Shown: positions 13,827-60,711 of the stretch, in pieces
How positions within the stretch are numbered: the first letter of the stretch is position 1
Layout of the letters: every line of letters begins with the position of its first letter
Position numbers and translations under genes: made by a program
Notes under the pieces: model-generated
Seen by the model: only the letters and a program-made list of their open reading frames with translations
Database searches by the model: none
What the model was told of the DNA's origin: nothing
Origin: a virus
Lineage: Duplodnaviria > Caudoviricetes
DNA length: 64,000 nucleotides
Direction: 5' to 3' (one strand)
IMG/VR virus record: IMGVR_UViG_3300033076_001354
Location: 32,001 to 96,000 of that record

Positions 13827-13845
13827 ACTTTCTTTTTGGAATCAC

Positions 13846-15168: not shown

Positions 15169-15401
15169 AGATCAATAAACTCAAAGTTCCGATCGAGATG
15201 ATTCAGGAGATCGAAGCTCTCGTCAAGAAGAGAAACCTTGAGTACATCGACGCGGTGATCTACTACTGCGAGAAGAACGACCTCGAGGTTGAGACTATGG
15301 CGGAGATCATCAAGCAGAACTCCGCGATCAAGTCAAAGATCCAGTTCGAGGCAGAGAACTTAAAGATGGTAAAGAGGACGTCGGCCCGCCTTCCAATATG
15401 A
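15165..15401 (+). CDS. 33: Late transcription coactivator gp33
   Basis: IEALVK...YIDAVIYYCEKNDLEVE...KSKIQFEAENL; position before gp59. Confidence 0.9.
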   Translation: MKINKLKVPIEMIQEIEALVKKRNLEYIDAVIYYCEKNDLEVETMAEIIKQNSAIKSKIQFEAENLKMVKRTSARLPI

Positions 15402-16003: not shown

Positions 16004-16004
16004 A

Positions 16005-43712: not shown

Positions 43713-43714
43713 AT

Positions 43715-43912
43715 ATGAATAGCAACGAAAACTTAAAGAGGTTAGGTTCTAACCCAGGCGCGGTGGTAAACACCGACCATCCGGGACTCAAGGCGTACCG
43801 CGAGGCTAGGGAACGGGTTAGACAGAGAAACAAAGACTTTGAACAGCTGAAGACTGAAGTCACCGAGCTCAAGTCGATGCTGAACCAAATACTAGAGAAG
43901 TTGGACAAATGA
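43715..43912 (+). CDS. Small coiled-coil protein
   Basis: GAVVNTD...LKTEVTELKSMLNQIL. Confidence 0.8.
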   Translation: MNSNENLKRLGSNPGAVVNTDHPGLKAYREARERVRQRNKDFEQLKTEVTELKSMLNQILEKLDK

Positions 43913-44523
43913 CGATAGCGATCGCAAACGTAGATACAACGACCGACTCATTCGGCCAGTGGATCACGAAGACAAACGTCTTATCGGACGCTATGTCGAA
44001 CAAAGTTGTCACCACGAACTCAAACACGGCGGTAGGCAACGCGGCGGTCTCATCGGCTTTCTCAGCGAACGCCCTCTACGCAAACACCCTCTCGGGCGGC
44101 AACAACTCGGTCACCGCTCCTCTCGCCGTCGCGACCAACACGTCTTTCACGGCGAACGTAGCTTTCAACGGGTACAGGACCAACTTAGGTCTCGGCGCAA
44201 ACGTTTCCGTAAACTCGGGCAACAGCACTTTCAGGGTGCTGACGGTCAACTCCGCCGCTTCCAACACACTCGTCGCAACTAAGATCTCGTTCGGTGACTT
44301 GTATGATATGAACGTTGCGTCGGCCGGCAACGGCGAAGTGTTGGTCTATACGTCCAACGGCAACTACTGGTACAACACCAACTCGGTCAACATAAATACT
44401 ACGACAAACACCGTGACTTTCTCTGGAAACATCGTCGTGTCGGGCATCCAATACGGGAACGGACAATCGTTCAGTTCATTGGTCGTCTACTACGCGAACG
44501 GTGTCCAAGCATTTCCAACATAA
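43909..44523 (+). CDS. Short fibre/adaptor protein
   Basis: TDSFGQWITKTN N-terminal motif. Confidence 0.75.
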   Translation: MTIAIANVDTTTDSFGQWITKTNVLSDAMSNKVVTTNSNTAVGNAAVSSAFSANALYANTLSGGNNSVTAPLAVATNTSFTANVAFNGYRTNLGLGANVSVNSGNSTFRVLTVNSAASNTLVATKISFGDLYDMNVASAGNGEVLVYTSNGNYWYNTNSVNINTTTNTVTFSGNIVVSGIQYGNGQSFSSLVVYYANGVQAFPT

Positions 44524-44532
44524 GCGTAAACG

Positions 44533-45630
44533 ATGGCAGCGCTACTTAAAATCAATACCGCTACGAGTCCAGTCTCCCTCAAGCAAGCTTCTGGGACCGA
44601 CTACGACTATGCTGTGAACCTGATACTTACGCAGTTCACGACCTCGACGTCGAACGCGAACATCACGGTTAATCCGGCGAACACCACGGGTTTGACGCTG
44701 ATCGGTACGTTTACTGATACGTACTTGAACGCCACGCCGGGACAACACCCGATTGGTACCACGCCGCTGTCCGTGACCTATAACTTCTACCAAGATCAGC
44801 AGGCTGCGTCAGAATCGATCACGCGTCCAATCGAGTTTGACACGACGATCAAAGAACAGAACGACACGACTTTGAACGCCGACTTGATCGCGACCGCTTT
44901 GGCTAACTTAGCGTCGACCGGCGTAGGTGCTTATGCCCTTCAGCCAACTTCACCGACGGGCGGCACTTGGGTTTCAATAAGCACGATTACCAACACACTC
45001 GACGCGGTCACAACGAACACCACTCAGCTTTGGAAAAAGACGGCGGCTGCTTCTACGCCATCTACCCTTAGGCCGATCAAGCTCAACACCGGTACTTCTC
45101 CAATCTCATTGAAGGAGATGTCGGACGCCGAGATCCAGTCGCTCGCCGCGCGCTTAAAGAATCGATTGATCGCGACCGGCATCGGTACGTACAAGATTCA
45201 AGGCACCACACCGGTAGGTGGAACATGGGTTACGTCAGGCGCCTCGTTCCTTGACACGACTAGAACCTCGTCGTCGGTTTCTTACTCCGGAACGTATACC
45301 GGCACCTACACCGGAAGCTACACAGGAAGCTACAGTGGAACGTATTCCGGTACGTACACCGGAAGCTACATCGGCACCTATAGTGGCAACTATACTGGAA
45401 CCTATCGCCCATCGTTCAACGGATACCTTGGCGGCTTCTTTACCGGTACATACACGGGCTTCTATAGCGGGACTTACATCGGAAGCTATACGGGCGGCTA
45501 CACCGGAAGCTACACTGGAAGTTATACTGGAAGCTACACAGGAAACTATACGGGTGGATACGCTGGCGATACGTTAAATAACGACAGCAGCACAGTCTCA
45601 ACAGTCTACTTATGGGTAAGGACGGCATAA
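44533..45630 (+). CDS. Virion protein with Y-[TS]-G-x tetrapeptide repeats
   Basis: Duplicated N-terminal module; about 21 tetrapeptide units. Confidence 0.85.
   Translation: MAALLKINTATSPVSLKQASGTDYDYAVNLILTQFTTSTSNANITVNPANTTGLTLIGTFTDTYLNATPGQHPIGTTPLSVTYNFYQDQQAASESITRPIEFDTTIKEQNDTTLNADLIATALANLASTGVGAYALQPTSPTGGTWVSISTITNTLDAVTTNTTQLWKKTAAASTPSTLRPIKLNTGTSPISLKEMSDAEIQSLAARLKNRLIATGIGTYKIQGTTPVGGTWVTSGASFLDTTRTSSSVSYSGTYTGTYTGSYTGSYSGTYSGTYTGSYIGTYSGNYTGTYRPSFNGYLGGFFTGTYTGFYSGTYIGSYTGGYTGSYTGSYTGSYTGNYTGGYAGDTLNNDSSTVSTVYLWVRTA
45283..45567 (+). repeat. 12-bp coding tandem repeat (consensus near TACACCGGAAGC)
   Basis: Encodes the YTGS-type arrays. Confidence 0.85.
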
Positions 45631-45631
45631 T

Positions 45632-46066
45632 ATGGCAAGGAAGATTATAAATCCTAGGTGGGGCAACGACGAGAAGACGGCTATTCTCGCTACGTTTAAG
45701 TACGACGACGGTCGCGAACTCGTCGCATCGATCAGCAACGTCGACGACACGATGAATCCTGATTGGAAAGAAATCATGGATACTTTCGGCGTTGAAATGT
45801 TGGATCAGAACACGGGCGACGCGCTTGAAAGCCACATGAAAAGAAAAGCTGAACGGGCCGAACGCGCTAAGATCGACCAAGATCGCGCGATGAAAGAAAA
45901 CTTGTTCAACTTGAAAGCCGAAGCCTTCGACATGGAAATCGTGAAGAACTCTAAGAACAGAGACGTCAAGAACAAGATCCGCAGGGCAGCCACTCCGACG
46001 GAAGTTCTCGTCTATACAGCTCTCCTTCACATGCTCGAGGATCCGTTGGCTAAACCCATGGCCTAA
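45632..46066 (+). CDS. Hypothetical protein, possible fibre chaperone
   Basis: NPRWGNDEKTAI resembles the N-termini of tail-fibre assembly proteins. Confidence 0.6.
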   Translation: MARKIINPRWGNDEKTAILATFKYDDGRELVASISNVDDTMNPDWKEIMDTFGVEMLDQNTGDALESHMKRKAERAERAKIDQDRAMKENLFNLKAEAFDMEIVKNSKNRDVKNKIRRAATPTEVLVYTALLHMLEDPLAKPMA

Positions 46067-46068
46067 TC

Positions 46069-46818
46069 ATGAACGGCTTTCTTTATGTGGCTTCACAGAG
46101 CGCCGCTTTCTATAAGTCAGCGGTGAACTCTGCAATATCCCTCCGTGATAATTATCCTGAAGCAAACATTACGCTCTTCACGCACGCCGACTTCGTTCAA
46201 GAGTCGGACCGCAAGTTCTTTGATAAGATTGAGACTGGGATCCCGATCCATAAGCGCGCCAAGATGTACGGCATGGCTAGGACGCCTTACGAGAAGACTT
46301 TCTACCTAGACGCCGATACTGAAATTAGATCTGAGAATATCAAAAAAGTATTTGACATCCTAGGAAACAATGATATAATGTTTACTAGGATTATATCAAA
46401 AGTTTCTAAAGATCGATTGATTGATTCCAACAATAATCTAGAGTATCACGGCGGTGTGGTTCTTTATAATTCAAAGAAGCTTACTCTTCAGTTGATGCAG
46501 GATTGGTATGAGACTTACCTGATCCAAGACCGTACGCCGTGGAGTCAAAGTCCGTTCGCCAGATTCAATCCTAAGATGAGACCATGGGATCAGTTCACCA
46601 TCTGGTACTTATTGAACGTAGATCCTAAATATAAAAAGATCAAGCACGACTTTTTTCCAGACGGCGGACACTCGTTCAACTATATAAGTCTGTTTGAAAA
46701 CTATGAAGAATTCAAAGAAATCGAACAGATCGTTTATCATCATACTATTCCACGTGACAGGATAGAAAATGCAGTCCTTATCAGACCTAAATCCGGACTT
46801 ACTGAAGACTTTAACTGA
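46069..46818 (+). CDS. GT-A nucleotide-diphospho-sugar transferase
   Basis: TPYEKTFYLDADT (DxD), HGGVVLY and WDQF. Confidence 0.85.
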   Translation: MNGFLYVASQSAAFYKSAVNSAISLRDNYPEANITLFTHADFVQESDRKFFDKIETGIPIHKRAKMYGMARTPYEKTFYLDADTEIRSENIKKVFDILGNNDIMFTRIISKVSKDRLIDSNNNLEYHGGVVLYNSKKLTLQLMQDWYETYLIQDRTPWSQSPFARFNPKMRPWDQFTIWYLLNVDPKYKKIKHDFFPDGGHSFNYISLFENYEEFKEIEQIVYHHTIPRDRIENAVLIRPKSGLTEDFN

Positions 46819-47428
46819 GTTCAGCAACTTCTTCTATGGGCGTGACTTCTCACACCTTGAGTCCTTGATCGGTTCAGACGAAAAAAGAAAAAACGTCAGT
46901 GTCAAGTCGATGGCTCTGGAAGCGGTCGGCGAGGAGTACTTGAGAAACGCTCTCAAAGAACCCCCGATGAAGTACGGATTCCCTAGACACTCTTGGGGAC
47001 TGGAGCTCGTGATGGATCGCCGATACATCGACGACAGGGAGCTCTTGGATAAGTCGCAGGCTGCCAACGATAAGCTGATGAACTTCTTCGGCGCGCGAAA
47101 CAACGCCCTTCAGATGTTTTATCCGTCCGGCGGCTACATCGGCTGGCACACGAACTGCAACGCTCCGGGATTCAACATCGTCCTCTCCTGCAACCCAGGA
47201 GCCAAGGGATACTTTGAGCACTACGACCACGTCAACGATAAGTTCGTTAGGTACGAAGATAAGCCGGGATGGAACTGCAAGGTCGGGTACTTCGGCCCCG
47301 ACACCGAACCGGAGAAGATGTATTGGCACTGCGCCTACACCGACACCCCTCGATTGACGTTCAGCTACGTCATATACGACAAGAACATTTGGGAAGACAT
47401 GGTGGATGACATCGGAAGAGCCGATTAA
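46769..47428 (+). CDS. Fe(II)/2OG-type (cupin) oxygenase-like protein
   Basis: YPSGGYIGWHTN...YWHCA...RLTFSY. Confidence 0.65.
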   Translation: MQSLSDLNPDLLKTLTEFSNFFYGRDFSHLESLIGSDEKRKNVSVKSMALEAVGEEYLRNALKEPPMKYGFPRHSWGLELVMDRRYIDDRELLDKSQAANDKLMNFFGARNNALQMFYPSGGYIGWHTNCNAPGFNIVLSCNPGAKGYFEHYDHVNDKFVRYEDKPGWNCKVGYFGPDTEPEKMYWHCAYTDTPRLTFSYVIYDKNIWEDMVDDIGRAD

Positions 47429-48164
47429 GTTCATATGTTTGAAGTGGGGAACTAAGTATGGACCCGAGTACGTCAACAGGCTTCATGAATCAGTACGGAG
47501 GCTATATCTTAAGCCTCACCGCTTTCTTTGTTATACTGATGATCCTCGAGGCCTTAGACCCGAAATCGAAGTAAAGAACATTGAGGAGCTTCGCAGGGTT
47601 AAGAACACCTGCTTCACTATGGAGAAGCTCTTCTTATTCGACGGTCTCGACTTCGAGGGACCGTACTGCCTTCTCGACATAGACATACTTATACAGTCCG
47701 ACATCACGTCTTACTTCGATGAGTATAAGTTCGTAGAACCTAGGTTCACGATTTCATCGGCGATGCATTCATACATTAAAGTCGCGCCTATATTCTCGCA
47801 AGAAGGAATGTGCTACGTCAACAGCTCGTTCGTGACTTGGACCGGCGATCAGCTTAAGTGGCTCCCCGACTTCTACATGGCGAACAAAGATATTATCGAC
47901 TATAAGTATAGAGACTTAGATACTTTCTTGTTTCACACCGTCTTAAAGAAGATGCGTTTTCACCCACAGGATATGATCTATTCTTTTAATCACGAAAAGA
48001 AGCGCTTAGACTCGCCGATAGTCATGTTCAATACTTCCCACGGTCGCGGCGTCGAGCTGCACGAGGGACCTACTTGGGCAAAGGAGTTGTGGGAATCGTA
48101 TGATAGTGAATCAGGATCCGCTCGTCTTCTAAGCGAACCTGTCGCTGCGCCGCGGTCGTCATGA
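47406..48164 (+). CDS. GT-A glycosyltransferase
   Basis: CLKWGTKYGPEYVNRL, CYTDD, LDIDI and NSSFV. Confidence 0.85.
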   Translation: MTSEEPIKFICLKWGTKYGPEYVNRLHESVRRLYLKPHRFLCYTDDPRGLRPEIEVKNIEELRRVKNTCFTMEKLFLFDGLDFEGPYCLLDIDILIQSDITSYFDEYKFVEPRFTISSAMHSYIKVAPIFSQEGMCYVNSSFVTWTGDQLKWLPDFYMANKDIIDYKYRDLDTFLFHTVLKKMRFHPQDMIYSFNHEKKRLDSPIVMFNTSHGRGVELHEGPTWAKELWESYDSESGSARLLSEPVAAPRSS

Positions 48165-48717
48165 TCTTCTTCTTGAGATACATAACCCTTCCATACTTAT
48201 TGATGAAGGTATCGTCCCCATAGTGTTCGCTCGTGTGCTTGAATATGTCGTCCATAAGCATCTGATACAGGTAGTGGTGTGAGTCTCCCACCCATCCCAT
48301 CACCGAAGAGTTTCCGTTGCAGAAGAACCTCTCCTTGTTCTTATAGTCGAGCTTATCAACGAGCCTCCACCATTCGTCGTTCTTCCATACCGTGTCCACC
48401 ACTTTCAACACGCCCTGCTGAACGTCTTCCACTAAAAAATCGATGTTCTTCTTTATGAGTATGTCAAGGTCGAAGTACAGGTTTATTCCCGGACTACATA
48501 TATCTTTGTTGAACAACAGTATCTTATTCCACCAAGTGTCGAGCTCGAACCGTGTTACGTCTATGAACTCAATGGGTCGATCCGTCTTCCAATCGGAGTC
48601 TGTCAGGCAAGTCATCTTGAATTCATGCGTTAAATACTTACGCACTTGGTCGTACAAGTTCTCGACGTGCTCTATAGAATACCTTGGCTTTACGAGTACA
48701 CAATAAACGTTTATCAT
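48070..48717 (-). CDS. GT-A glycosyltransferase (inverted family member)
   Basis: CLTDS, WWNKILLF, YFDLDI, NSSVM and GDDTFI. Confidence 0.85.
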   Translation of the reverse strand: MINVYCVLVKPRYSIEHVENLYDQVRKYLTHEFKMTCLTDSDWKTDRPIEFIDVTRFELDTWWNKILLFNKDICSPGINLYFDLDILIKKNIDFLVEDVQQGVLKVVDTVWKNDEWWRLVDKLDYKNKERFFCNGNSSVMGWVGDSHHYLYQMLMDDIFKHTSEHYGDDTFINKYGRVMYLKKKIMTTAAQRQVRLEDERILIHYHTIPTTPLPK

Positions 48718-49426
48718 GGATCAGACCGTTAAGTTTATAGTTTTGAAGTGGGGAACCAAGTATGGTCCCGAGTACGTCAACAGGCTATTTAGGACTTTAA
48801 AAGCGACTTACTCCGGTCCCTTTGAGTTCTACTGCTTCACCGACAACAGTCGTGGTGTCGAGTGCAGGACGTATCCCATTGAGATGCTTCCGCTCTTTAA
48901 GTCAAACGTATTTACCGCGTGCAAGCTCGATCTATTCAATAAGCTTCCGTTCAAGGGACCATATTGTTTTCTCGACCTCGACCTACTCATCCTTAAAGAC
49001 CTCAAGCCGTACTTCGATGAATACGGCTTCAATGAGCCTAGGATGATATACAACTATTGGACTGAGACCGAAAGGATCTATAGGTCGTACTATACGGGCG
49101 ACTGCTACGTCAATAGTTCATTCGTGACGTGGGACGCCGACCAGCTAAGGTGGATGCGCGAGAGATTCATTGAGAACCAAGAAGTGATCTCTTTCAGGTT
49201 TAAGACTCTCGATAAGTTCATATACTATAGCAGTCGCAAGGATATGAAGTACCACCCGCGCGGGGTGGCGTACGCCTACAGCTTTGGCTCCGACCACCCA
49301 TTTGACGTCGAACCCTATAAGCTAAGGGATCAATACATATCGATATTCAACACTTCACATAAGAAAGGCGTCGAGCTACACGACGCAAACGGATGGGCTA
49401 GAGATGTTTGGACCCGGTACGACTGA
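48716..49426 (+). CDS. GT-A glycosyltransferase, paralog of 47406
   Basis: LKWGTKYGPEYVNRL, LDLDL, YVNSSFVTW and FNTSH. Confidence 0.85.
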   Translation: MDQTVKFIVLKWGTKYGPEYVNRLFRTLKATYSGPFEFYCFTDNSRGVECRTYPIEMLPLFKSNVFTACKLDLFNKLPFKGPYCFLDLDLLILKDLKPYFDEYGFNEPRMIYNYWTETERIYRSYYTGDCYVNSSFVTWDADQLRWMRERFIENQEVISFRFKTLDKFIYYSSRKDMKYHPRGVAYAYSFGSDHPFDVEPYKLRDQYISIFNTSHKKGVELHDANGWARDVWTRYD

Positions 49427-50036
49427 ACTTGACTACATCGTAGAATTAAACAGGATTCTAAATGAACTGTTTAAGCATCTTCAAAGCAGGAATCTAGACT
49501 ACGTCTATAGGTTCTATGCTATGCACAACGAAGAAAAGATGCGAAATCGCAACTTCATCGCGATGGAGGCTATAAGGAAGAACTTTAAACAACTAAACAA
49601 CGTCGCGATCGTGAACAGCAGCAGTCCCGTCGCCCTAACACACTTCTTAAAGAAGGAGTACAAATCTTCAGTGACACTGATTTCAGACCACCCGTCTTTT
49701 GAAATGTCGCTGGGATTCTTTCAGAGATTCTTTAAGGCGAACACCATAGTCAAAAGCGTCTTCTTTGAAGACGTCGATCTATCTTCATACGACTTGGTGA
49801 TCTTGTCTGAGTTTGAATACTTGGTTCCTCTCGATATGCTCAAGCACGTTAACTTCGGTGATTCACCTATAATGGCTCTTCAGCATATCCAGCACGTCAA
49901 CGATCACAACAGTCGACACATAGTCATGTGCATCGAAGACTTACTTGAGCTGTGCAACTTTAAGACTCTACTCGACTCAGGCGAGACCCTCAATATAGAC
50001 AATAGGTTCGTCTATCACGCCTTGGGAGTGAAGTGA
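49404..50036 (+). CDS. Hypothetical protein, possibly a degenerate Rossmann/MTase fold
   Basis: YDLVILSEFEYL; context in the modification island. Confidence 0.5.
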   Translation: MFGPGTTELDYIVELNRILNELFKHLQSRNLDYVYRFYAMHNEEKMRNRNFIAMEAIRKNFKQLNNVAIVNSSSPVALTHFLKKEYKSSVTLISDHPSFEMSLGFFQRFFKANTIVKSVFFEDVDLSSYDLVILSEFEYLVPLDMLKHVNFGDSPIMALQHIQHVNDHNSRHIVMCIEDLLELCNFKTLLDSGETLNIDNRFVYHALGVK

Positions 50037-50659
50037 TCCGGAGGAGTCAAGATGATCTTGACGTGCTCGTCGAGCCACCATGGGTCTGCAGCGTGAATGT
50101 ATTTCTCGTTAGCATCTTGCTTTAAGATCTCGTCGACCTGAGGATCTTCCCACGCCATAGGGAAGTCGAGCCAGTGACCGAGCGACTTGATGTATTGGCG
50201 TCTGTACAAGTATAGAAGTTCTTGGCTGATGAAGAAGGGCGGCACCTTCATCCATTGAATGAGCTGAGGCATGTTGCCCCAAGTCGGACCGCCGCGAAGC
50301 CTCGTCTGCTGGTGCGTCAAGATGTTCTTATCTCTGCCTATGACGACCGGTTGAACCTCGATGCCTAGACTCTGACACTTCTCCATGAACTCATAAATCG
50401 GTGGGACTTTAGGCAGCCACTTCTCAATGTATGGGTTGCTGATGCTCGTAACGGCGTACTTCTTGCCGCCCATGATGTTTAAGTCAATCTTATCGATGTT
50501 GTTCCAGTAGTAGTTGAACGGCTCTTTGTAGTGAGGGATGAAGTATCCATCGGGCTTGAGCGCGTCTTTCCAACCGTGAACTTCAGGGTGCATGCTGAAG
50601 ATCTTACCGAAGAGGTGATTGCCCGAACCCTGTGGACCGAATAGAACTATAATCTTCAT
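50015..50659 (-). CDS. Sulfotransferase-like P-loop protein
   Basis: IVLFGPQGSGNHLFGKIFSMHPEV (PSB-loop-like) and VIGRD. Confidence 0.6.
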   Translation of the reverse strand: MKIIVLFGPQGSGNHLFGKIFSMHPEVHGWKDALKPDGYFIPHYKEPFNYYWNNIDKIDLNIMGGKKYAVTSISNPYIEKWLPKVPPIYEFMEKCQSLGIEVQPVVIGRDKNILTHQQTRLRGGPTWGNMPQLIQWMKVPPFFISQELLYLYRRQYIKSLGHWLDFPMAWEDPQVDEILKQDANEKYIHAADPWWLDEHVKIILTPPDHFTPKA

Positions 50660-51411
50660 CAGTTCTTCCTCAGCTCAAAGTAGAGCCTGTTGCCGTTGTC
50701 TTTCTTGAACGACTCAAGCTTACAGTCGTGGATGCTGGCGATCTTATACGCGGTCTCAAAGTCCCATGGATAGATGTCGACCCATGGACCATTCTTGTGC
50801 ACTTCACCGGGATTCGCCCTGACGTAGATCGTGCCTCCGCGCATAGTCAAGTCGATGACTTTCTTGAACCTTGCGTTGATGTCGTCGAAGTCGCCGAAGT
50901 TGATGCTGCCGAAGACGATGACGTGGTCATAGGATTCGTTGGGAACGTTGTAGTCTAGAATGTCTACCATGAAGTCGGCTGAGTTGTTGAAGGCGTCGAT
51001 GCCTACCAAGTTAGGGATCCTAGCTTTAAACTGATTGAACCCACATCCTACGTCGAGGACTGCCTTTGGGTTCGACTTATTGATTCGCTCAACTATGTTC
51101 CATCCGGTGTATTGATACACCTCGGTGCGCGGCTGCCAGATTCCTCCCCAGAACCTAGCGCTGTACTTAGTGTCTATGTCAGCTGTTAGCATAGAGACTG
51201 ACACGCCGTCGATGTTGATGTCTACGTCGAAAGTATCACTGAGCAACGCCATGAACTTCTCCTGCTTCTTTGGAGTCCATGGAAGCGATGAAACTATCGT
51301 GTGCGGATTGATATTTTCATAGACCTCAATATACTTCGGGAGATTGAAGCAGTCTTTCAAGTTTTTCAGAACGAAGTTAAAAATTTTGTGATTCACAATA
51401 AAAATTCCCAT
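50659..51411 (-). CDS. SAM-dependent methyltransferase with small N-terminal domain
   Basis: VLDVGCGFNQFK, FGSINFG and RANPG. Confidence 0.85.
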   Translation of the reverse strand: MGIFIVNHKIFNFVLKNLKDCFNLPKYIEVYENINPHTIVSSLPWTPKKQEKFMALLSDTFDVDINIDGVSVSMLTADIDTKYSARFWGGIWQPRTEVYQYTGWNIVERINKSNPKAVLDVGCGFNQFKARIPNLVGIDAFNNSADFMVDILDYNVPNESYDHVIVFGSINFGDFDDINARFKKVIDLTMRGGTIYVRANPGEVHKNGPWVDIYPWDFETAYKIASIHDCKLESFKKDNGNRLYFELRKN

Positions 51412-51473
51412 TTGAGTAATTTTTTTCCTTATTGATTATATATATAGATCAACAAGGATTTTTTCTTTAGAGG

Positions 51474-52214
51474 ATGAAAAAAATGACGACTTATCAAGAC
51501 TGGGGCGACAGCCGCTGGGAATTCACCAAGAGTCAAAGTAAGTGGCACTTTGATCCATCCCGACCTCCGGTTCCCGGTCTAGACAGCTACACACACGTGT
51601 GTAGGTTCGACGCCGACTTTACCGACGCGATCGCCAAGTGTATGCCTCGAGCTAAAGCGAGCAGCTGGAGCAGCAGAAATAATTTCAACGAAAAGATAGC
51701 GGAGCAGGGACTTTATTCCGCGAGCCTTGAGGAGAAAGACCTCATCAGGGCTGGAGCAGATCCTAAACAAGAAGTGTTTCATCGCACGGCGGCCGAGGAC
51801 ATCGACGTCTTTCAAAAGATCGCAGCTTGGCTCGGCATCGATGAGCCGATGATTAAGTTCCACAACCAGACTACTGGTCAGATGCTTCACACTCACTTGG
51901 ACAACTTCGCCGCGCGCCCCGAGCGCGAGAACAGCTTCAAGGAGACTGAGATCGACAAGAACCCCGACATCATGAGAAGGTTCGCAATCATGCTTGCGGA
52001 CTGGGAGCTCGGTCAGATCTTTCAGATCGGCAACGCGAACTTCACCCAGTGGAAAGCGGGCGACTGCATCACTTGGGAATGGAAGGACATGCCGCACAGC
52101 ACGGCTAACATGGGATGGTGGGATCGCCCGATGCTTCAGATCACGGGATACACCACCGACAGAACCAAAGAAGTTCTCGGCGGTGCCGGAAAGAATCTGG
52201 TCGTAAAGATATGA
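51474..52214 (+). CDS. Fe(II)/2OG oxygenase (AspH/cupin-like)
   Basis: GQMLHTHLD (HxD), WKAGD, PHSTANMG and RPMLQITG. Confidence 0.8.
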   Translation: MKKMTTYQDWGDSRWEFTKSQSKWHFDPSRPPVPGLDSYTHVCRFDADFTDAIAKCMPRAKASSWSSRNNFNEKIAEQGLYSASLEEKDLIRAGADPKQEVFHRTAAEDIDVFQKIAAWLGIDEPMIKFHNQTTGQMLHTHLDNFAARPERENSFKETEIDKNPDIMRRFAIMLADWELGQIFQIGNANFTQWKAGDCITWEWKDMPHSTANMGWWDRPMLQITGYTTDRTKEVLGGAGKNLVVKI

Positions 52215-52954
52215 ATCAAGTCATCGCCGTCGCTTATATGCCGGGTGCCTATGGCAGCTTTCTCTGTTGGGCACTCGAGAGATTCTCAAAAGTAAGGAAG
52301 TCTTACCACCCACCGGTCACCGATAACCCTCTTCTTCCGGACGGCAGCAGCCACGCCTACGCGAGCTTCTGTAAAGTCAAGCAGGAAGACCAGTTCATCG
52401 ATGGCCTCAACGTTGCCAGAAACTCAGTCGTCCCATGGAACCACAACGTATACGCGGGATGGCCGTGCGGCAAGAGCGAGAACTTACAGAAGACCGTAGA
52501 GAACATAGGTTCTTGGATGAACACGATGGACAGGCTTATAGTGGTAGTTCCTCAGACTCCCGTGGATCATTACATCTGCTACATTAGGAATGAGTTTACC
52601 CTTGACAAAACCCGCTGGTATGATATATTGGGTATTGAAAAAGATGAACAGCTTTACGAGAGAATGATCGAAGACATCGAGGCTGACTACTCGCTCAACG
52701 TCGAAGACCCTAGGATCTTAAAGCTGACGATCTCTGAGATCCTATATGATCCACCGTACGTATTGTTCGGTAAGATCGCCAAGCTCGTGGGTTGGCCTAC
52801 CTGCGACTTTGGTCTCTTTGAGACTACTCTCTATGAGATGAGAAAAAGGCAAGAGAAGTATTTCAATATGATCACTGACGCCAACAAGGGCGACAGCTTA
52901 ACGCAGCGTGCAATAACTAAATTTAGACTGGAGTACAATAATGGATTTAACTAA
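52211..52954 (+). CDS. Hypothetical P-loop/sulfotransferase-like protein
   Basis: IAVAYMPGAYGSFL; ATGA overlap. Confidence 0.55.
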   Translation: MNQVIAVAYMPGAYGSFLCWALERFSKVRKSYHPPVTDNPLLPDGSSHAYASFCKVKQEDQFIDGLNVARNSVVPWNHNVYAGWPCGKSENLQKTVENIGSWMNTMDRLIVVVPQTPVDHYICYIRNEFTLDKTRWYDILGIEKDEQLYERMIEDIEADYSLNVEDPRILKLTISEILYDPPYVLFGKIAKLVGWPTCDFGLFETTLYEMRKRQEKYFNMITDANKGDSLTQRAITKFRLEYNNGFN

Positions 52955-54395
52955 AATCTTTCCGTTGTTCACTCCGGATACGGGCATCACAGTTCTAGCT
53001 GTGTATGCCGCAATCGTGTTCGGACTGACATGGGTATTTGCTAGCGGATACGCTTGGAATAAAGAAAGCTTCTTCGTCGCAAGACGCGAAGTCAGCACGC
53101 TGCAGGGTGCGATGAGCACGGGTGCCGCGTGGATGTGGGCACCGGGAATGTTCATCTCGGCGCAGCAGGCATATATGAACGGACTCGTCGGTTTGTTCTG
53201 GTTCTGTATCGGTAACTTCCTCAGCTTGATCTTGTTCAGTTGGTTCGCCAATCGCCTACGCGATCGCAAGCCCGATGGATTCACGATCTCAGGCTACTTG
53301 AGAGAGAAGTTTGGCAAGCGCGTTCAGGTGCTGTTCATGATCGAACTGCTCTCGCTCGCGGTGTGCAGCTTCGCCATCAACGCGCTGGCAGGAAGCAAGA
53401 GCGTCGAGGTGATCACTGGCATGAGCTACCACACGGTTAGCTTGATCCTCGCGGCGATCGCATTGGTCTATACCATTCGCGGCGGCCTCAAGGCATCCGT
53501 CATCACCGAGATGTTTAAGCTCTCTGTGTTGGTATTGGGTCTTGCGTTCATCGTTCCATGGGCGATCAACACCGCCGGTGGTCTCAGCATCGTCGACCTA
53601 GGACTCGGTGGAATCACCGGCAACGGTCGCGACATCATCGGCACGCCCTTCGCGCTCGGTGTGTTCATGGGCTTCGGCTTCTCCACCGCCATCGGTCACC
53701 TCGGTGCACCTTGGGGAGACAACGCCTTCTATCAGCGCGCCTTCGCAGTTCGTAAAGAGTCCGTGATCAAGGCATTCGTCGGTGGCGCGTTCATCTTCAT
53801 CTTGACGCCGCTGATGACGGGTCTCCTTGGATTCTTGGCCGCTGGTCTCCAGTACCAAGTTCCTAAAGAGCTGCTCGGCTACGTGAACATCCTCACCGTC
53901 GGAAGCCTGCTTCCTTCTTGGGTTGTCGTGCTCTACTTGTTCATGCTGTTCGCAGGCCTCGTGTCTGTGCTTGACTCGCAGCTGAGCTCGGTCAGCAACA
54001 TCTTTGGTCACGATGTCAAGAACTTGGTCGCAGCGGATCAAGACGAAACCAGCAGCATCAAGATCGGTCGCCTTGGTATGATCCTCTTGATCCTTGGCGG
54101 TCTCACCATCGCAAACTGGCCGGGAATGACACTCGTCACGATCTTCCTGTTCTTTGGTATCCTCAGAGCAACCGTTTGGTTCCCTCTCATGTTCAGCCTT
54201 TGGAATGAAAAGCTTGTGAATGAGAAGGGTATGTTCTGGGGTGTGTTGATCGCATACGTGGTTGGATTCACCACCTACGTCTACGGTCAAAACTTCGGAG
54301 GCGGTCCAAACATCGCGGTGCTTGGAACTTGTCTCGCGGTCTTCGGCTCGGGCGCTTTGGCACTCGGCATCACAAGAGTGACAGATGCCCGTTAA
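52941..54395 (+). CDS. Sodium:solute symporter (SSS family)
   Basis: About 13 TM helices; ESFFVARR, GGLKASVITE, YQRAFA and SVLDSQL. Confidence 0.9.
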   Translation: MDLTKIFPLFTPDTGITVLAVYAAIVFGLTWVFASGYAWNKESFFVARREVSTLQGAMSTGAAWMWAPGMFISAQQAYMNGLVGLFWFCIGNFLSLILFSWFANRLRDRKPDGFTISGYLREKFGKRVQVLFMIELLSLAVCSFAINALAGSKSVEVITGMSYHTVSLILAAIALVYTIRGGLKASVITEMFKLSVLVLGLAFIVPWAINTAGGLSIVDLGLGGITGNGRDIIGTPFALGVFMGFGFSTAIGHLGAPWGDNAFYQRAFAVRKESVIKAFVGGAFIFILTPLMTGLLGFLAAGLQYQVPKELLGYVNILTVGSLLPSWVVVLYLFMLFAGLVSVLDSQLSSVSNIFGHDVKNLVAADQDETSSIKIGRLGMILLILGGLTIANWPGMTLVTIFLFFGILRATVWFPLMFSLWNEKLVNEKGMFWGVLIAYVVGFTTYVYGQNFGGGPNIAVLGTCLAVFGSGALALGITRVTDAR

Positions 54396-54846
54396 GAAGA
54401 TCTTAATAATGGGCTTGCCGGGATCGGGAAAAACGACTCTGGCAAGAGCCTTGGCACCAAAGCTCGGTGCGGTTCACTGGAACGCGGATGCAGTAAGGGC
54501 TGAGATAAACTCTCACCTCGGCTTCAGCGAGAAAGACCGCATCGAGCAGGCGCGAAGGATGGGGTGGCTCTGTGATCAAGTCGTCAAGGCTGGTCACTGG
54601 GCCATCGCCGACTTCGTGTGTCCGACCAAAGAGACGCGGGACGCTTTCGGCGAATGCATCACCATCTGGGTCGACACTATAAAAGAGGGTAGGTTCGAAG
54701 ATACAAACAAGTTGTTTGAGCCGCCCGTTAAATACGACTACAAGGTGACTGAACAGAACTCAGACTTCTGGGCTAAGTTCTTAGCGGAAGACCTTGACTT
54801 CTATGAGAAGCCTACCTTCTTTAAAGCCATATTAAAGGGTTTGTGA
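54385..54846 (+). CDS. cysC: Adenylylsulfate (APS) kinase-like protein
   Basis: GLPGSGKTT, NADAVR..LGFSEKDRIEQARR and FEPP. Confidence 0.8.
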   Translation: MPVKKILIMGLPGSGKTTLARALAPKLGAVHWNADAVRAEINSHLGFSEKDRIEQARRMGWLCDQVVKAGHWAIADFVCPTKETRDAFGECITIWVDTIKEGRFEDTNKLFEPPVKYDYKVTEQNSDFWAKFLAEDLDFYEKPTFFKAILKGL

Positions 54847-55196
54847 TGTTTGATTATAACAAGCCGACCGTGCAGATGTTGGGCAGGTACCAACCGTGGC
54901 ACGCCGGACACCATGAATTGTTTAAGCGCGCTTACGCGAAGACCGGACAAGTCTGCATCATGGTTAGAGACGTCGACGAAGCTTTCAACTACAGGGAAGT
55001 GGAGTCGAGGATCATCGACGACCTTTACATACACGGCTATGAAAACGGCGTCGACTTCATCGTGCTTCGTGTACCAAACATCGTCAACATCACTTATGGT
55101 CGCGACGTTGGGTATAAGATCGAGCAGGAGCACCTAGGTGAAGAGATCGAGAGCATCTCAGCCACGAAGATTCGCAGAGAGATGGGAATCGAATAG
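54843..55196 (+). CDS. HxGH-superfamily nucleotidyltransferase
   Basis: GRYQPWHAGH and ISATKIR. Confidence 0.85.
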   Translation: MMFDYNKPTVQMLGRYQPWHAGHHELFKRAYAKTGQVCIMVRDVDEAFNYREVESRIIDDLYIHGYENGVDFIVLRVPNIVNITYGRDVGYKIEQEHLGEEIESISATKIRREMGIE

Positions 55197-55200
55197 GTGA

Positions 55201-55815
55201 ATGCATAAGTACATATTCATCGCCGGCGCGCCGGGATCCGGATGGAGCAGGGTCGCGCTGAGCATACACAATAGTCCAAGCATTGACTACAGCGACTGGT
55301 CGAAAGACCAGTCGTGGACTTTTATAAACGACAAGAATCTAGAAGAAAAAAGCTATCACTCCGGCGCTTACTTTGGACCCGATCAAAAATACGGAAAGAA
55401 ATTCGATCGTCTCGATGAATTAACTAAAGACGAGATCGAAGAAGAGTTTGCCCGCCCATTCAAGGGATCCGGCACTAAGATAATAAAGTGCCACGACTTT
55501 GCTTATCAACTCGACTTTATAAAAGAACACTGGCCTGATTGTCCTATAATAACTTGTCATAGGCCGACTGAAATATGCTATAGTTGGTGGATGTATGTCG
55601 GAGGTGCTGACATAGCTTTCCCGTCTTATAAAATGTTGAAGACGATTGATCCCAAGAAATACATGGACAAGTGCAACCAAGGGATAGAGAATTTCTTGGC
55701 AGAGAATAAAACGATCGGGCTTGAAAACAACATTGAGCTGTGTGAGATCTTAGAGCTCGACTATCCTAAAAATATAATCTACTTTGACCACGCGAACGTA
55801 TGTATAAAGGTTTGA
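55201..55815 (+). CDS. P-loop sulfotransferase-like protein
   Basis: IFIAGAPGSGWS and IIKCH. Confidence 0.6.
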   Translation: MHKYIFIAGAPGSGWSRVALSIHNSPSIDYSDWSKDQSWTFINDKNLEEKSYHSGAYFGPDQKYGKKFDRLDELTKDEIEEEFARPFKGSGTKIIKCHDFAYQLDFIKEHWPDCPIITCHRPTEICYSWWMYVGGADIAFPSYKMLKTIDPKKYMDKCNQGIENFLAENKTIGLENNIELCEILELDYPKNIIYFDHANVCIKV

Positions 55816-55816
55816 T

Positions 55817-56449
55817 ATGGAAAAGATCTTCTCCCTAATCAAAGAAGCCAACGATGAAACTCTATGGATGTTTTCCAGAGACGTTCACGACCTCATACTC
55901 GAGAAGTACTACAGCACGTATTGGCCCGACGTTCCCAATGGCTTCGACGAAAGTAAGACCAAGTCGATCGAGATGATCGTCAACCTACACGAATGTAAGA
56001 ACATACTCGACGTCGGATGCGGCTACAATCACTTCAAAGATAAGTTCCCCGATGCAAAGTTCACCAGCATCGAGCCGTACATCGACGGTGCAGACTATAA
56101 GATGACTGTGACTGAGTACCAACGAAACTTTCCGGATCGCCAGTACGACTGCGTCATGGCTCTTGGTTCGATCAACTTTGGTCCCAAGGCAAAGATCCTT
56201 GAAGAAGTCGAGGCGATGGATAAGCTCACTCGACCAGAAGGCATTCAAATCTGGCGCGTCAATCCTAGGGACAAACCCTTCGTCGACGACAGATTTCCCA
56301 TATCAGAACTCATTCAATACTACGGTTGGGATGAGCCGTTCATTCGCCACATCAGCGAAGTGTACAACTATAGGTTGATCGAATACAAAGAAGAGATGAA
56401 CTACTCCAACGATCGAAGGATCTTTTTTATCATGAAGAAAGGCCTGTAA
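55817..56449 (+). CDS. SAM-dependent methyltransferase, paralog of 50659
   Basis: ILDVGCGYNHFK, ALGSINFG and RVNP. Confidence 0.85.
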   Translation: MEKIFSLIKEANDETLWMFSRDVHDLILEKYYSTYWPDVPNGFDESKTKSIEMIVNLHECKNILDVGCGYNHFKDKFPDAKFTSIEPYIDGADYKMTVTEYQRNFPDRQYDCVMALGSINFGPKAKILEEVEAMDKLTRPEGIQIWRVNPRDKPFVDDRFPISELIQYYGWDEPFIRHISEVYNYRLIEYKEEMNYSNDRRIFFIMKKGL

Positions 56450-57096
56450 TGAAGTACATATTCATGGCCGGCGCACCCGGATCAAAGTGGAGCTCGGTCG
56501 CCCGCAGCATCTACTTCAGCAGCGACATCAATCAGAGCGACTTCTCGCTCAATCGCAGGTACTTCCACGACGCGTCGGGTAAGCGCCAGCTCATGCACCT
56601 TGGGTCCTACTTCGATCCGGGAATGGAGTTCGGAAACGAGTTCAACATGCTCAACCTATTAAGCAAAGAAGAATGCGAGCAAGAGTTCGATCGACCGTTC
56701 ACCCACGACATGGGAACAAAGATTATAAAGAGCCACTTCTTTACGTACTACTTAGATTATCTCAAAGAAACGTGGAAAGACCCGATAGTCTTGGTAAGTC
56801 GTGACTCGGACGCCTGTATAGGGTGGTGGATCAGGTGCGGTCACTTTAACATCACCTATCCTAAGTACGACTTCTATAAAAACATCGACGATATGGTCAA
56901 GTACGTCGATGCCCAGAATAAGTTCATAAAGAGGTTCATCGATGAGAACGAGACCCTTCAGGTATGGAACAGCCTCGAGCTGGCCCAAGCCCTAGGAATC
57001 AACGACGAGGGCGTCTACCACCAAGACTACAAGCGAAACGACATCAAGGTCCACCTCTACTGGGGCAAATACGACGGGAGTCAGGCTTTCCTCTGA
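56449..57096 (+). CDS. P-loop sulfotransferase-like protein, paralog of 55201
   Basis: IFMAGAPGSKWS and IIKSH. Confidence 0.6.
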   Translation: MKYIFMAGAPGSKWSSVARSIYFSSDINQSDFSLNRRYFHDASGKRQLMHLGSYFDPGMEFGNEFNMLNLLSKEECEQEFDRPFTHDMGTKIIKSHFFTYYLDYLKETWKDPIVLVSRDSDACIGWWIRCGHFNITYPKYDFYKNIDDMVKYVDAQNKFIKRFIDENETLQVWNSLELAQALGINDEGVYHQDYKRNDIKVHLYWGKYDGSQAFL

Positions 57097-57099
57097 GAA

Positions 57100-57107
57100 T
57101 ATAAATA
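57100..57107 (+). promoter_or_regulatory. T4 late promoter
   Basis: TATAAATA where the structural genes resume. Confidence 0.75.
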
Positions 57108-57131
57108 GTTTGAAGCTTAGTCGAGGTTACC

Positions 57132-57458
57132 ATGGCAACGAAACTCAATCTGGTCATAGACCAAGGCGCGACCTATTCAAACGCGATTCTCGTGAAAGAT
57201 TCTAGCAACAACGCGATCAATCTTTCGACCTACACCGTAGCGGGACAGATAAGGAAGTACTACACTTCTTCGAACAGCACCGCTTTCACGGCGACCGGAA
57301 ACAGCACCGGTTACGTCAACATCTCACTTACAGCAAACGCGACGGCGAACCTCTCTTCGGGCAGGTACGTCTACGACGTTGAGATCACCAGCAACACGGG
57401 CATAGTGACACGTGTTACGGAAGGCATAGTCACGATCACACCTCAAGTGACACGATAA
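57132..57458 (+). CDS. Small virion adaptor protein
   Basis: NLVIDQGAT, GRYVYDVEI and RVTEGIVTITPQVTR. Confidence 0.8.
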   Translation: MATKLNLVIDQGATYSNAILVKDSSNNAINLSTYTVAGQIRKYYTSSNSTAFTATGNSTGYVNISLTANATANLSSGRYVYDVEITSNTGIVTRVTEGIVTITPQVTR

Positions 57459-60400: not shown

Positions 60401-60662
60401 CACTACTGTCTACTCCACTATCAATAGCACAGCGTTTTCTGGAAGCGCAAATTCCGCATCTTACCTCGGCGGGAATACGGCTTCAGACTTAAGGACCTAC
60501 ACCGACAATAAATCCGGCAACGCTTTCTCCAACGCTGTTTCTACGATGATAGCGAACAGCACGAGCTACACGGGTAACAATACGTTTGGTGGAACGACTA
60601 CCACCTTCAACAGCAACATAGTATTCAACGGGACTTTCACGATCGACGGCGGAACATTCTGA
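57465..60662 (+). CDS. Fibre protein: coiled-coil/acidic N-terminus, collagen-like segment, Asn-rich repeats
   Basis: GGGEVKLARLDDVD; (G-x-x)n near 58335-58433; repeats TFATNTYVNS and YLNGKTESNLNVNN; IDGGTF end. Confidence 0.85.
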   Translation: MDEKKLLEGFAKALGSAGEKALKDIEEKKLKEQKYLEGLASMLGPEAKRKLEEIENEQAEKKKALEAKKEEIRAKKEKEQRLLDEINKSLTALVTGNPQYIEAIEQEVAETIAELPIEETIAAAVEETVAEVIEEAPVEEIEENAAQPQPELPKDDIITLAVKDISKSAPGKIQDVVDELPRGLRRELDILKKSIADLHRFATNHSQMGGGGEVKLARLDDVDASTIEDGYYLQYDAASGKFIFAAGGGGGGTGPRGANGISITNAAVNGNGYLIITYSNSATSNAGYVVGATGPTGANGANGAAGANGANGTNGTNGTDGIGISSATVNGDGYLTITYSNTYVANAGYVVGPAGSGNGGVSQIQSNWTQTNNTAVDFIKNKPYVPTNTDIETAYNNVVAYAASNTYVNSTFATNTYVNGTFQTMSGLSANVATLAANAATYLNGKTESNLNVNNALTSNNSTYAFGKSESALNVNNALTSNNSSYLGGVAANGYLTTTGVNTSNGSFTYYSNASNTAFSIVLTPYTPTGNQTFAFYTTGSIYGPQAWMSWPDGTLQRTAWTGAADGLIANSSGTFVNNSYIATLSANASTYLNGKTESNLNVNNALTSNNASYLGGNTASDLRTYASDLAGNAYSNAIAYAASNSTVYSTFATNTYVNSTFQTMAGLSANVATLAANASTYLNGKTESNLNVNNSFTSNNASYLGGNTALDLRAYSDTAAGIAYSNAISYAASNNAVYSTFATNTYVNSTFATNTYVNSTFATNTYVNDTFQTMAGLSANVAKLSANAATYLNGKTEPNLNVNNALTSNNASYLNGNTASDILTYVDNKSGNAYTNATAFSSNASNISSGTVGEPRLPYRMDQNVRTTDAVSFGNMTITGNLTVTGNVAVIGANNLTVVDNMIYLNSNNTVTNPDLGFAGNYNDGSYHHAGFFRDATDGFWKVFDNYAPEPDASPYIDTSNNTFHIADFHANTFRVGNTTVYSTINSTAFSGSANSASYLGGNTASDLRTYTDNKSGNAFSNAVSTMIANSTSYTGNNTFGGTTTTFNSNIVFNGTFTIDGGTF

Positions 60663-60711
60663 CGTTAAATAGGTTATAACCCGCAGTATATACTGCATAA
60701 AAGGTTGCCAG

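Follow-up and report, generated by a model that had tools for sequence, protein, structure and literature searches.

The DNA analysed here (the window) is a stretch of 64,000 nucleotides from a freshwater phage, corresponding to bases 32001-96000 of the 157.6-kb IMG/VR virus record IMGVR_UViG_3300033076_001354, which is rated 98% complete (genome G000). According to PHROG matches it belongs to a T4-like myovirus: baseplate wedge genes of the gp6, gp7 and gp8 types and a hub gene lie upstream of the region of interest, while an endolysin-like gene, gp13, gp14, the large terminase and the tail sheath are found 3' of it. For the gp6 homologue, identity is about 40% to the counterparts in Stenotrophomonas phage DLP6 and in T4-like phages of Rhizobium, Sinorhizobium and Caulobacter. 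The region itself is an island of 21 tightly packed open reading frames (ORFs, o01 to o21), which occupy positions 43715-57458, preceded by a 1928-aa fibre gene (phrog_358) and followed by more fibre-like genes. As the gene order is T4-like (gp6-gp8, fibres, island, gp13, gp14, terminase, sheath), the island occupies the slot, between fibres and neck, where T4 has gp9-12 and wac. An earlier reading of the same DNA (the original prediction) had described these genes as a candidate single 11-kb pathway for glycosylation, sulfation, methylation and hydroxylation of the virion. The ORFs are where it placed them, between two blocks of fibre genes, but the genes belong to two modules, here called A and B, which are inherited separately, and the single pathway is not upheld.

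Most of the island is poorly covered by curated libraries: 14 of the 19 proteins o03-o21 have no Pfam or NCBIfam match, and Pfam recognises only o15, o16 and o17, in addition to a sub-threshold Sulfotransfer_3 match on o18 and a weak Gly-zipper match on o03. Paralogous relationships (o07/o09, with o08; o12/o19; o18/o20) were identified by all-against-all comparison. No match to the island was found by megablast and blastn among 50,697 phage records, and tblastn of o09, o20, o05 and o03 retrieved no cultured phage, but only unannotated metagenomic records and 'Phage C48C1'. PDB sequence and profile searches with the o20, o13, o07-o09, o05, o06 and o03 families returned nothing useful, and a scan of the island for sigma-70 promoters and terminators gave results not above those of shuffled sequences. 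About half of the enzyme names given in the original prediction are motif-only or weak matches.

In order to follow the two modules in other genomes, relatives were collected from IMG/VR. At least 337 stretches encode an o05 relative according to the o05 profile search; counts for module A refer to the best 79 loci among them, fetched down to 37% identity. Relatives of the o20 sulfotransferase number at least 3500 in metagenomes, and the corresponding profile is found in at least 557 IMG/VR stretches; from these, 80 loci were gene-clustered (82 sulfotransferase loci counted), and the 48 loci flanked on both sides by five genes or more are referred to as full module B loci.

Module A extends from 44533 to 50036. 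Its genes, together with the one that precedes them, are:

o02, 43909..44523, plus strand: 204 aa, Asn/Ser/Thr-rich, structural-like, upstream of module A; weak phrog_13853 match; homologue in 14 of the 79 module A loci
o03, 44533..45630, plus strand: an N-terminal part made of two repeat modules, about 20 copies of G-x-Y-x, and a C-terminal end that is conserved (...LWVRTA); its Gly-zipper Pfam matches are weak
o04, 45632..46066, plus strand: 144 aa, 89% identical in L004/L012
o05, 46069..46818, plus strand: candidate GT-A-like nucleotide-sugar transferase, with a DxD motif (YLDADTE)
o06, 46769..47428, plus strand: conserved partner of o05
o07, 47406..48164, plus strand: glycosyltransferase (GT)-like paralogue of the 'GTa' type, 43% identical to o09; phrog_1962 at 7e-4, invariant DxD
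o08, 48070..48717, minus strand: GT-like paralogue of the 'GTb' type; phrog_1962 at 6.5e-9
o09, 48716..49426, plus strand: GT-like paralogue of the 'GTa' type; phrog_1962 at 1e-5
o10, 49404..50036, plus strand: 210 aa, no family match; follows the GT-like genes in relatives

These genes travel together. Alongside the o05-type gene, o06 is present in 77 of the 79 loci, the o08 and o09 types in 72 each, and o03 in 71, with one to four GT-like paralogues of the o07-o09 types in each module. Most often the genes run f1, o03, o05, o06, GTb (reversed) and GTa, in some loci also o21, and then come gp13 and gp14. A large fibre or baseplate gene is found upstream in 35 of the 43 loci with at least 7 kb of upstream DNA, and of the 33 loci that extend for 7 kb or more downstream, every one has o21 or neck genes there. 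Module A occupies the fibre/neck junction as a constant feature in a broad group of aquatic T4-like phages. The repeat (G-x-Y/F-x)n, followed by the conserved C-terminal end, is retained in 69 of the 71 o03 homologues, and o03 appears as the constant partner of the GT-like genes and as their candidate substrate. The original prediction had deduced virion decoration from the position within the tail cluster; for module A that argument stands on these counts, and decoration of the virion is plausible.

The attribution of o05, o07, o08 and o09 to GT-A glycosyltransferases, as originally proposed, is weakly supported. In its favour, D81-x-D83 is invariant in the o05 family and D87-x-D89 in o07-o09, phrog_1962, matched by the latter, is labelled 'glycosyltransferase', five of 18 o05 family members show weak Glycos_transf_2 (GT2) matches, one source labels an o05 relative as a nucleotide-diphospho-sugar transferase, and o09 has an ESM Atlas lead to GT8/Nucleotid_trans at 0.95. 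The window's own four proteins have no Pfam match and no significant match to a curated GT family, and relatedness between the o05 family and the o07-o09 family is not detectable. The o06 product had been proposed as one of two Fe(II)/2-oxoglutarate (2OG) oxygenases. Its invariant pattern, established on 17 sequences, is H127-x-N129...H187...R195-x-T197, with H-x-N instead of the H-x-D/E of the metal triad, and comparison with profiles and the PDB revealed neither similarity to 2OG oxygenases nor a relative of known function; the proposal is unconfirmed.

Two further points concern the smaller genes. A 196-aa antisense ORF (45440-46066) overlaps o04 and is 49% conserved, against 89% for the plus-strand ORF, so that the latter is taken as the gene. 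In the arrangement found in L045 the order is GT-o10-GT-o10. The G+C content of the enzyme part of module A (46001-50000) is 0.458, compared to 0.51-0.54 in the flanking fibre genes, a difference that fits a mosaic origin.

Expression signals were analysed by searching the T4-type late promoter motif. The features that bear on module A are:

late promoter motif TATAAATA, 43708..43715, plus strand: exact match, in front of o01-o02-o03
late promoter motif TATAAATA, 57100..57107, plus strand: in front of o21
o21, 57132..57458, plus strand: small protein of late structural type, which closes the island in relatives; phrog_1084 at 8e-27; present in 29 of the 79 module A loci

The window contains eight exact matches to the motif versus 0.86 expected, and none between 43716 and 57099. 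In all 28 o21 homologues examined (loci L106-L184) the motif is found within 120 nt upstream of the gene, compared to a background of 0.008 per 125 nt; o21 reads as a strictly late gene. It also matches phrog_3304, 'L-shaped tail fiber protein assembly', at 3e-20. Genes o03 to o07 are co-oriented and tightly spaced behind the promoter at 43708; o05 and o06 are probably late genes too, because they lie directly 3' of o03 on the same strand.

Clusters of glycosyltransferases in aquatic T4-like phages are usually ascribed to modification of the host surface or of DNA. Module A, perhaps together with module B, might remodel the host envelope (lipopolysaccharide, capsule, S-layer or exopolysaccharide), in order to block superinfection or to keep progeny from sticking to debris, o03 being just a neighbouring structural gene. 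Such is the usual published reading of these clusters in cyanomyoviruses (PMC12801897), and genes for UDP-glucose dehydrogenase, epimerase, carbamoyltransferase and GT4 are found near some cassettes. The near-perfect synteny of the transferases with one repeat protein, maintained down to 31-40% identity, is nevertheless hard to square with a host-variable glycan; flippase, polymerase, lipid-carrier or membrane GT genes are not present, and o05 and o06 appear to be co-transcribed behind the late promoter. We consider a role at the host envelope unlikely, although it retains some weight. A widespread GT-like set, tied to a single repeat protein at the junction of fibres and neck, offers a concrete candidate for virion glycosylation outside the actinobacteriophages.

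The closest precedent is found in mycobacteriophages Che8, Corndog and Myrna (Freeman et al. 2023, PMC10527164, as reported in PMC12801897), where, like the GT-like genes of module A, phage glycosyltransferase genes lie beside structural genes; according to that account their products act in the cytoplasm on virion proteins of the phage itself. The targets described there are the C-termini of capsid and tail-tube proteins, and the chemistry is reported to have been shown. Compared to what is described for those phages, module A involves unrelated GT-A-like families, T4-like aquatic myoviruses and, as candidate target, a dedicated (G-x-Y-x)n repeat protein.

A second likeness, useful as a lead, is with glycogenin and other GT8/GT-A protein glycosyltransferases, which are small enzymes with a DxD motif; glycogenin puts glucose on tyrosine. 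The Atlas neighbours of o09 are GT8/Nucleotid_trans proteins and the constant partner o03 is tyrosine-rich, but module A has no significant GT8 sequence match.

Module B (50015-57096) is built around a triad of sulfotransferase, oxygenase and methyltransferase. Its genes are:

o11, 50015..50659, minus strand: P-loop-like protein with sulfotransferase-like motifs by eye; present in 37 of the 48 full loci
o12, 50659..51411, minus strand: putative class-I S-adenosylmethionine (SAM) methyltransferase, triad member; present in 48 of 48 full loci
o13, 51474..52214, plus strand: predicted Fe(II)/2OG oxygenase, triad member; present in 47 of 48 full loci
o14, 52211..52954, plus strand: protein tied to the variant of the cassette with a sodium:solute symporter (SSS) gene, and found only together with that gene
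o15, 52941..54395, plus strand: predicted importer of the SSS family; phrog_20720 at 2e-89
o16, 54385..54846, plus strand: adenylylsulfate (APS)-kinase-like P-loop kinase with a short lid
o17, 54843..55196, plus strand: 117-aa nucleotidyltransferase with HxGH and ISxTxIR motifs
o18, 55201..55815, plus strand: predicted sulfotransferase, 41% identical to o20; Sulfotransfer_3 at 0.0047
o19, 55817..56449, plus strand: second putative methyltransferase, paralogue of o12 (E 9e-18)
o20, 56449..57096, plus strand: predicted 3'-phosphoadenylylsulfate (PAPS)-type sulfotransferase, triad member; model pLDDT 87

The original prediction had counted three to four sulfotransferase-like proteins, of which o18 and o20 are retained. 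Foldseek on the o20 model was ambiguous between kinases and sulfotransferases, and the two were separated by VIA-align: the seven best matches are all sulfotransferases (Z 11.2-8.4, rmsd 3.3-4.4, 153-176 residues aligned), whereas kinases appear from Z 8.2. The tyrosylprotein sulfotransferases score best (Z 11.2, 10.6 and 10.5), with TPST1 on top (Z 11.2, rmsd 3.3, 166 residues aligned) and TPST2 at Z 10.6; OLS ST (Z 9.5) and Stf9 (Z 9.1) are also matched. In the o20 family G8, P10, G11, S12, W14, K94, H96 and R118 are invariant and D121 nearly so; they were compared with the pattern of PAPS-dependent enzymes (a loop binding the 5'-phosphosulfate and lacking the Walker Lys-Ser/Thr pair, a catalytic Lys/His strand and the 3'-phosphate motif R-x-x-x-D/S), their equivalence to SULT residues being judged by eye. 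The Pfam gathering score for sulfotransferases is not reached by o18 (17.6 bits versus 27 for Sulfotransfer_3), and o20 has no match; in precomputed tables, two o20 relatives carry PF13469. Taken at the level of the model, the sulfotransferase fold of o18/o20 is confirmed. The likeness of o20 to TPST1/2 (5wri and 3ap3, 166 residues aligned) is to be read with an identity of 14-15%, a length shorter by about 70 residues, a K-S-H motif like that of cytosolic SULTs, and a margin of 1-2 Z over other sulfotransferases.

For o11 and o14 the same attribution is unconfirmed: both show P-loop-like motifs, neither has a Pfam, NCBIfam or PHROG match, and hhalign to the o20 family yields the first strand only (8.9%) or nothing. 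In a metagenome protein, P0348, an o11-type domain is naturally fused to an o12-type methyltransferase (hhalign 99.9%), which ties o11 to the module B pathway. In a second o11 fusion (P0351), the C-terminal partner of 270 aa matches none of the cassette families. Read at its greatest length, o14 starts at 52115 and overlaps o13 by 100 nt; since the relatives are 244-249 aa long, the start is probably the ATG at 52211.

The two paralogous methyltransferases of the original prediction are supported by the o12/o19 similarity, by the motif LDVGCG (L119, D120, V121, G122, C123, G124), invariant in the o12 family, and by PDB profile matches, weak (E 0.01-0.1) and mostly to methyltransferases; Pfam gives no match. 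Of the two proposed oxygenases, o13 is the one that holds. Its model (pLDDT 81) gives 110 Foldseek matches with E<=1e-3, led by AspH and P4H at 3e-6, and the 50 best VIA matches are all 2OG oxygenases (Z 11.1-8.0), among which proline 3-hydroxylase at Z 11.1 and PBCV-1 prolyl hydroxylase at Z 10.9. The metal triad and the 2OG-binding arginine (H141-x-D143...H208...R218) are invariant in 27 sequences. These results confirm, for the modelled structure, a 2OG oxygenase with a double-stranded beta-helix (DSBH) fold. The prolyl hydroxylases (free-proline 3-hydroxylase 1e5r, PBCV-1 vCPH 5c5t, PHD2, Dictyostelium PhyA) share DSBH and HxD...H...R with o13 and are the top VIA matches (Z 10.4-11.1), but many small-molecule oxygenases lie within 1 Z, identity is 9-13%, and the substrate is unreadable from the fold.

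The divergent region between o12 and o13 (62 nt) contains, at 51420-51460, a near-palindrome, TTGATTATATATATAGATCAA. The sequence TATATATA in the same gap is one mismatch from the late motif and reads on both strands. The gap may serve the cassette as an operator or as a promoter acting in both directions.

The remaining assignments concern transport and the supply of PAPS. For o15, the SSS family is confirmed by profile (Pfam SSF PF00474 at 3.3e-26, 92.6 bits versus a cut-off of 22.8, residues 44-437; TIGR00813 at 7e-38), as predicted; no substrate-specific equivalog is reached, PutP (3e-14) being far below its cut-off. The proposed APS kinase, o16, is better described as APS-kinase-like: Pfam APS_kinase PF01583 is matched at 1.5e-15 (58 bits versus 21.1) over residues 6-91 only, and the score for NCBIfam equivalog TIGR00455 (4.9e-15, 55.7 bits) is below the cut-off of 138.7. 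Its sequence reads NADAVR, LGFSEKDR and DFVCP, with a shortened lid, to be compared with the APS-binding motifs of CysC, DGDxxR, LGFSxxDR and FISP. The HxGH nucleotidyltransferase o17 is also found as predicted, in a minimal form: Pfam CTP_transf_like is matched at 2e-4 (22 bits versus a cut-off of 21), and the best named NCBIfam matches are to the N-terminal 40 residues of NMNAT-type models. It is not a member of the sulfate adenylyltransferase families of Pfam and NCBIfam. Being adjacent to the kinase, and fused to it in phrog_10255, o17 may be a minimal ATP sulfurylase, a role inferred from this association.

Module B shows a different behaviour from module A. In the first 12 IMG/VR loci, found via the transporter, o11 to o15 and o20 recur while the flanks mostly differ. 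The triad is complete in 47-48 of the 48 full loci, with the APS kinase in 19 and the small nucleotidyltransferase in 7. An importer part of any kind is found in 35 of 48 (SSS 14, TctA 8, TctC-type binding protein 21). The middle of the cassette takes four forms: o14 with SSS; TctA with TctC; TctC alone; or a ferritin-like protein with peptidase C26/GATase and cupin. Pfam recognises the variant importers (TctA 1.6e-87, TctC 9e-20). In L027, a sulfotransferase 83% identical to o20 occupies the same site before o21, and TctA/TctC replace the SSS gene, a swap which suggests that the two importer types are functionally interchangeable. By hhalign, o14 and o11 show no link to two proteins found in the TctA variant (248 and 354 aa), and a resemblance of the 354-aa family to TctC, seen by eye, was not confirmed by Pfam. 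With respect to the tripartite tricarboxylate transporters (TTT; TctCBA/Bug) and to the SSS proteins PutP and PanF, the cassette importers belong to the same families (TctA, TctC, SSF), but the cassette has no TctB and the phage SSS protein fits no named equivalog.

The surroundings of module B are DNA polymerase, ribonucleotide reductase, PhoH, radical-SAM or replication genes. Among metagenome contigs, the cassette is found in a huge phage between radical-SAM and carbamoyltransferase/epimerase genes, in a phage with PolA/DnaB/primase, and in phages with TctA permease in place of the SSS gene. An o21-like gene is present in 3 of the 48 full loci and a GT-like family in 2; among the 82 sulfotransferase loci these figures are 8 and 4, respectively. 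The original prediction depended on an association with fibre genes in relatives. It holds for module A and fails for module B, which is rarely near fibres: a fibre-like ORF lies within 8 genes in 7 of the 82 loci. Co-inheritance of transferase and structural genes is seen for module A only.

Two side observations concern the cassette surroundings. Loci L006/L020 (IMGVR_UViG_3300027712_001108) belong to a 158-kb contig rated 30% complete, hence a huge phage, and carry the cassette together with haem oxygenase and ferredoxin-dependent bilin reductase. Several paralogous radical-SAM-like genes are found in the genome under study (window 13846-15168; G000 13792-16279 and 154582-155631), and relatives of these genes adjoin the cassette in L006/L020.

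The presence of an APS-kinase-like gene recalls the cysC genes reported from freshwater phages, which are transcribed and have been read as an aid to sulfur assimilation (PMC10914622). Module B might analogously be an auxiliary set boosting host sulfate activation for cysteine. No PAPS reductase is found in this genome, so that phage PAPS would serve the sulfotransferases and not assimilation; in addition, the kinase can be missing (19 of 48 loci have it), unlike the triad of sulfotransferase, oxygenase and methyltransferase, which is constant. A role in sulfur assimilation is very improbable. The reading of phage 'cysC' is corrected: in this cysH-less genome it is part of a sulfotransferase cassette. 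The role of phage sulfotransferases was stated to be unclear in a 2023 paper (PMC10580990). The product of module B could matter for freshwater sulfur and carbon flow.

Known systems provide a parallel for this part of the cassette. NodPQ/NodH of rhizobia, CyrN/CyrJ/CyrI of cylindrospermopsin synthesis and metazoan PAPS synthase resemble module B in having an APS kinase (an APS-kinase-like protein in module B) and a nucleotidyltransferase-fold enzyme beside a PAPS sulfotransferase, with a 2OG hydroxylase in the cluster, and fused kinase-transferase forms exist on the phage side too (phrog_10255). They differ in that o17 has only 117 aa and is similar to NMNAT-type N-termini rather than to ATP sulfurylase, o16 has a short lid and a score below the equivalog cut-off, and module B is viral, mobile and provided with its own importer.

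Taken together, the results favour, with a probability of roughly 55%, a mosaic of two units with separate histories, a virion-protein glycosylation unit (module A) and a portable sulfation cassette (module B). Only 10 of the 79 o05-type loci contain a sulfotransferase, compared to 71-77 which keep o03, o06 and the GT-like genes. The transferases of module A would use nucleotide sugars to glycosylate either o03, at a serine, threonine or tyrosine within the repeat, or the fibre proteins next to it, before assembly and while these are still in the cytoplasm; action on o03 or on the adjacent fibre proteins is what best explains synteny, position and repeat pattern. In module B, a solute would be imported by one of the interchangeable importers and hydroxylated by the prolyl-hydroxylase-like oxygenase; the new hydroxyl would be O-sulfated with phage-made PAPS, optionally supplied by the APS-kinase-like protein and the HxGH nucleotidyltransferase, and the product methylated by the SAM methyltransferase. 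The target is probably a small molecule that the cell takes up: importers of the carboxylate type and genes of metabolism found with the cassette (peptidase C26/GATase, cupin, ferritin-like) speak for it rather than for a virion glycan, and the presence of importers in 35 of 48 loci also agrees better with such a substrate, or with sulfate, than with a glycan. In this lineage module B would merely have landed in a variable slot beside module A. A proline route, combining a PutP-like importer with a proline-hydroxylase-like oxygenase, was considered and is kept as a lead only, given the low PutP score and the many tied oxygenase matches.

Several points weigh against this reading. Both modules are inferred to act as proposed on the evidence of genes, the GT-A identity of o05 and o07-o09 consists of weak matches plus the DxD motif, and the minus-strand GT-like genes have no late promoter motif. 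The o03 product, a candidate virion protein, has no PHROG or PDB relative. The fetched loci are the best 80 of several hundred, so that the counts lean to closer relatives, and many are fragments. The adjacency of A and B occurs in at least three arrangements (the G000 type, the L045 type and a reversed ST-ST-MT-OX-MT type), which might mean that the two are functionally linked instead of simply sharing a hot spot, and the nearest solved structures, tyrosylprotein sulfotransferases for the sulfotransferase and, among others, peptidyl-prolyl hydroxylases for the oxygenase, make a protein target for module B possible. A functional link between the modules is possible; with 8 of 82 loci, adjacency is about as frequent as expected for a random site in a 200-gene genome.

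The same facts are central to the single pathway of the original prediction, now extended to the whole 11-13 kb: a glycan would be built on the fibres, and this glycan or the protein then hydroxylated, sulfated and methylated by module B, with PAPS made from imported sulfate. Module B lies beside module A, in one of three arrangements, in G000, in L004/L012 and L045/L053, and in four marine loci; the sulfotransferase is structurally nearest to tyrosylprotein sulfotransferases and o03 is tyrosine-rich; the oxygenase resembles peptidyl-prolyl hydroxylases, including the viral enzyme of PBCV-1. The fibre neighbours had also been described as dense in N-x-S/T sequons. Sequon density is above that of composition-matched shuffles in four fibre proteins (z 2.3-4.1), and the excess is real but modest, being partly expected in Asn/Ser/Thr-rich beta-fibres; an NGT-type enzyme was not seen. 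Against the single pathway, module B is without module A or a fibre neighbour in about 90% of its loci, module A is without module B in 69 of 79, and the adjacency is close to chance. Furthermore, SSS and TTT importers are not, to our knowledge, sulfate carriers. A common pathway is regarded as distinctly unlikely. A more elaborate version, in which the tyrosine-rich repeat of o03 is a purpose-built acceptor, O-glycosylated on tyrosines or threonines by glycogenin-like GT-A enzymes, then, in phages which have module B as well, sulfated and methylated by its TPST-like sulfotransferases and its methyltransferases to give a polyanionic, mucin-like neck whisker, is improbable; we know of no such post-translational system, a glycosylated, sulfated and methylated neck whisker, in any virus of bacteria.

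Modification of DNA was considered in the light of one further feature, located outside the window:

T4-type DNA hypermodification cluster, G000:C1:124998-127734 (loci L025 and L026): genes for a gp42-like deoxycytidylate (dCMP) hydroxymethylase, a dCMP deaminase and an alpha-glucosyltransferase

The hydroxymethylase matches PDB 1b49 at 1.3e-88 and keeps the dCMP-specifying Asp (Asp179 equivalent), and the alpha-glucosyltransferase matches PF11440 at 8e-79; both are close homologues of the T4 enzymes. The phage DNA probably contains glucosyl-hydroxymethylcytosine (hmC). The original prediction had set DNA modification aside and had noted no base-hypermodification entry enzyme in the window. 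Such an enzyme is present outside it, accompanied by a T4-type alpha-glucosyltransferase, and since this canonical hmC system lies elsewhere in the genome, the island is indeed not needed for DNA modification. With hmC-glucose DNA expected from these enzymes, the GT-like genes could still add more sugars to it, as does the second glucosyltransferase of T2/T6. The DNA system nevertheless forms a cluster of its own, about 45 kb downstream of the island, and module A is tied by position to structural genes and to o03; the proposal is very improbable. A search for the T4 beta-glucosyltransferase family gave no match, in the controls either, and carries no weight. The hydroxymethylase was not found in five related partial records, only 5-37% complete and too incomplete to count, and the same holds for the GT-like genes, whose absence from the five cassette-bearing records (5-37% complete) carries no weight.

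The DNA that follows o21 (57465-64000, and on to about 98900 of the record) encodes three fibre-like proteins of 1065, 490 and 937 aa, with no PHROG match. They are absent from the close relatives L004/L012/L030, where o21 is followed by the endolysin-like gene and gp13, and L027 has different fibre-like ORFs in the same slot. These genes appear to form a swappable fibre cassette.

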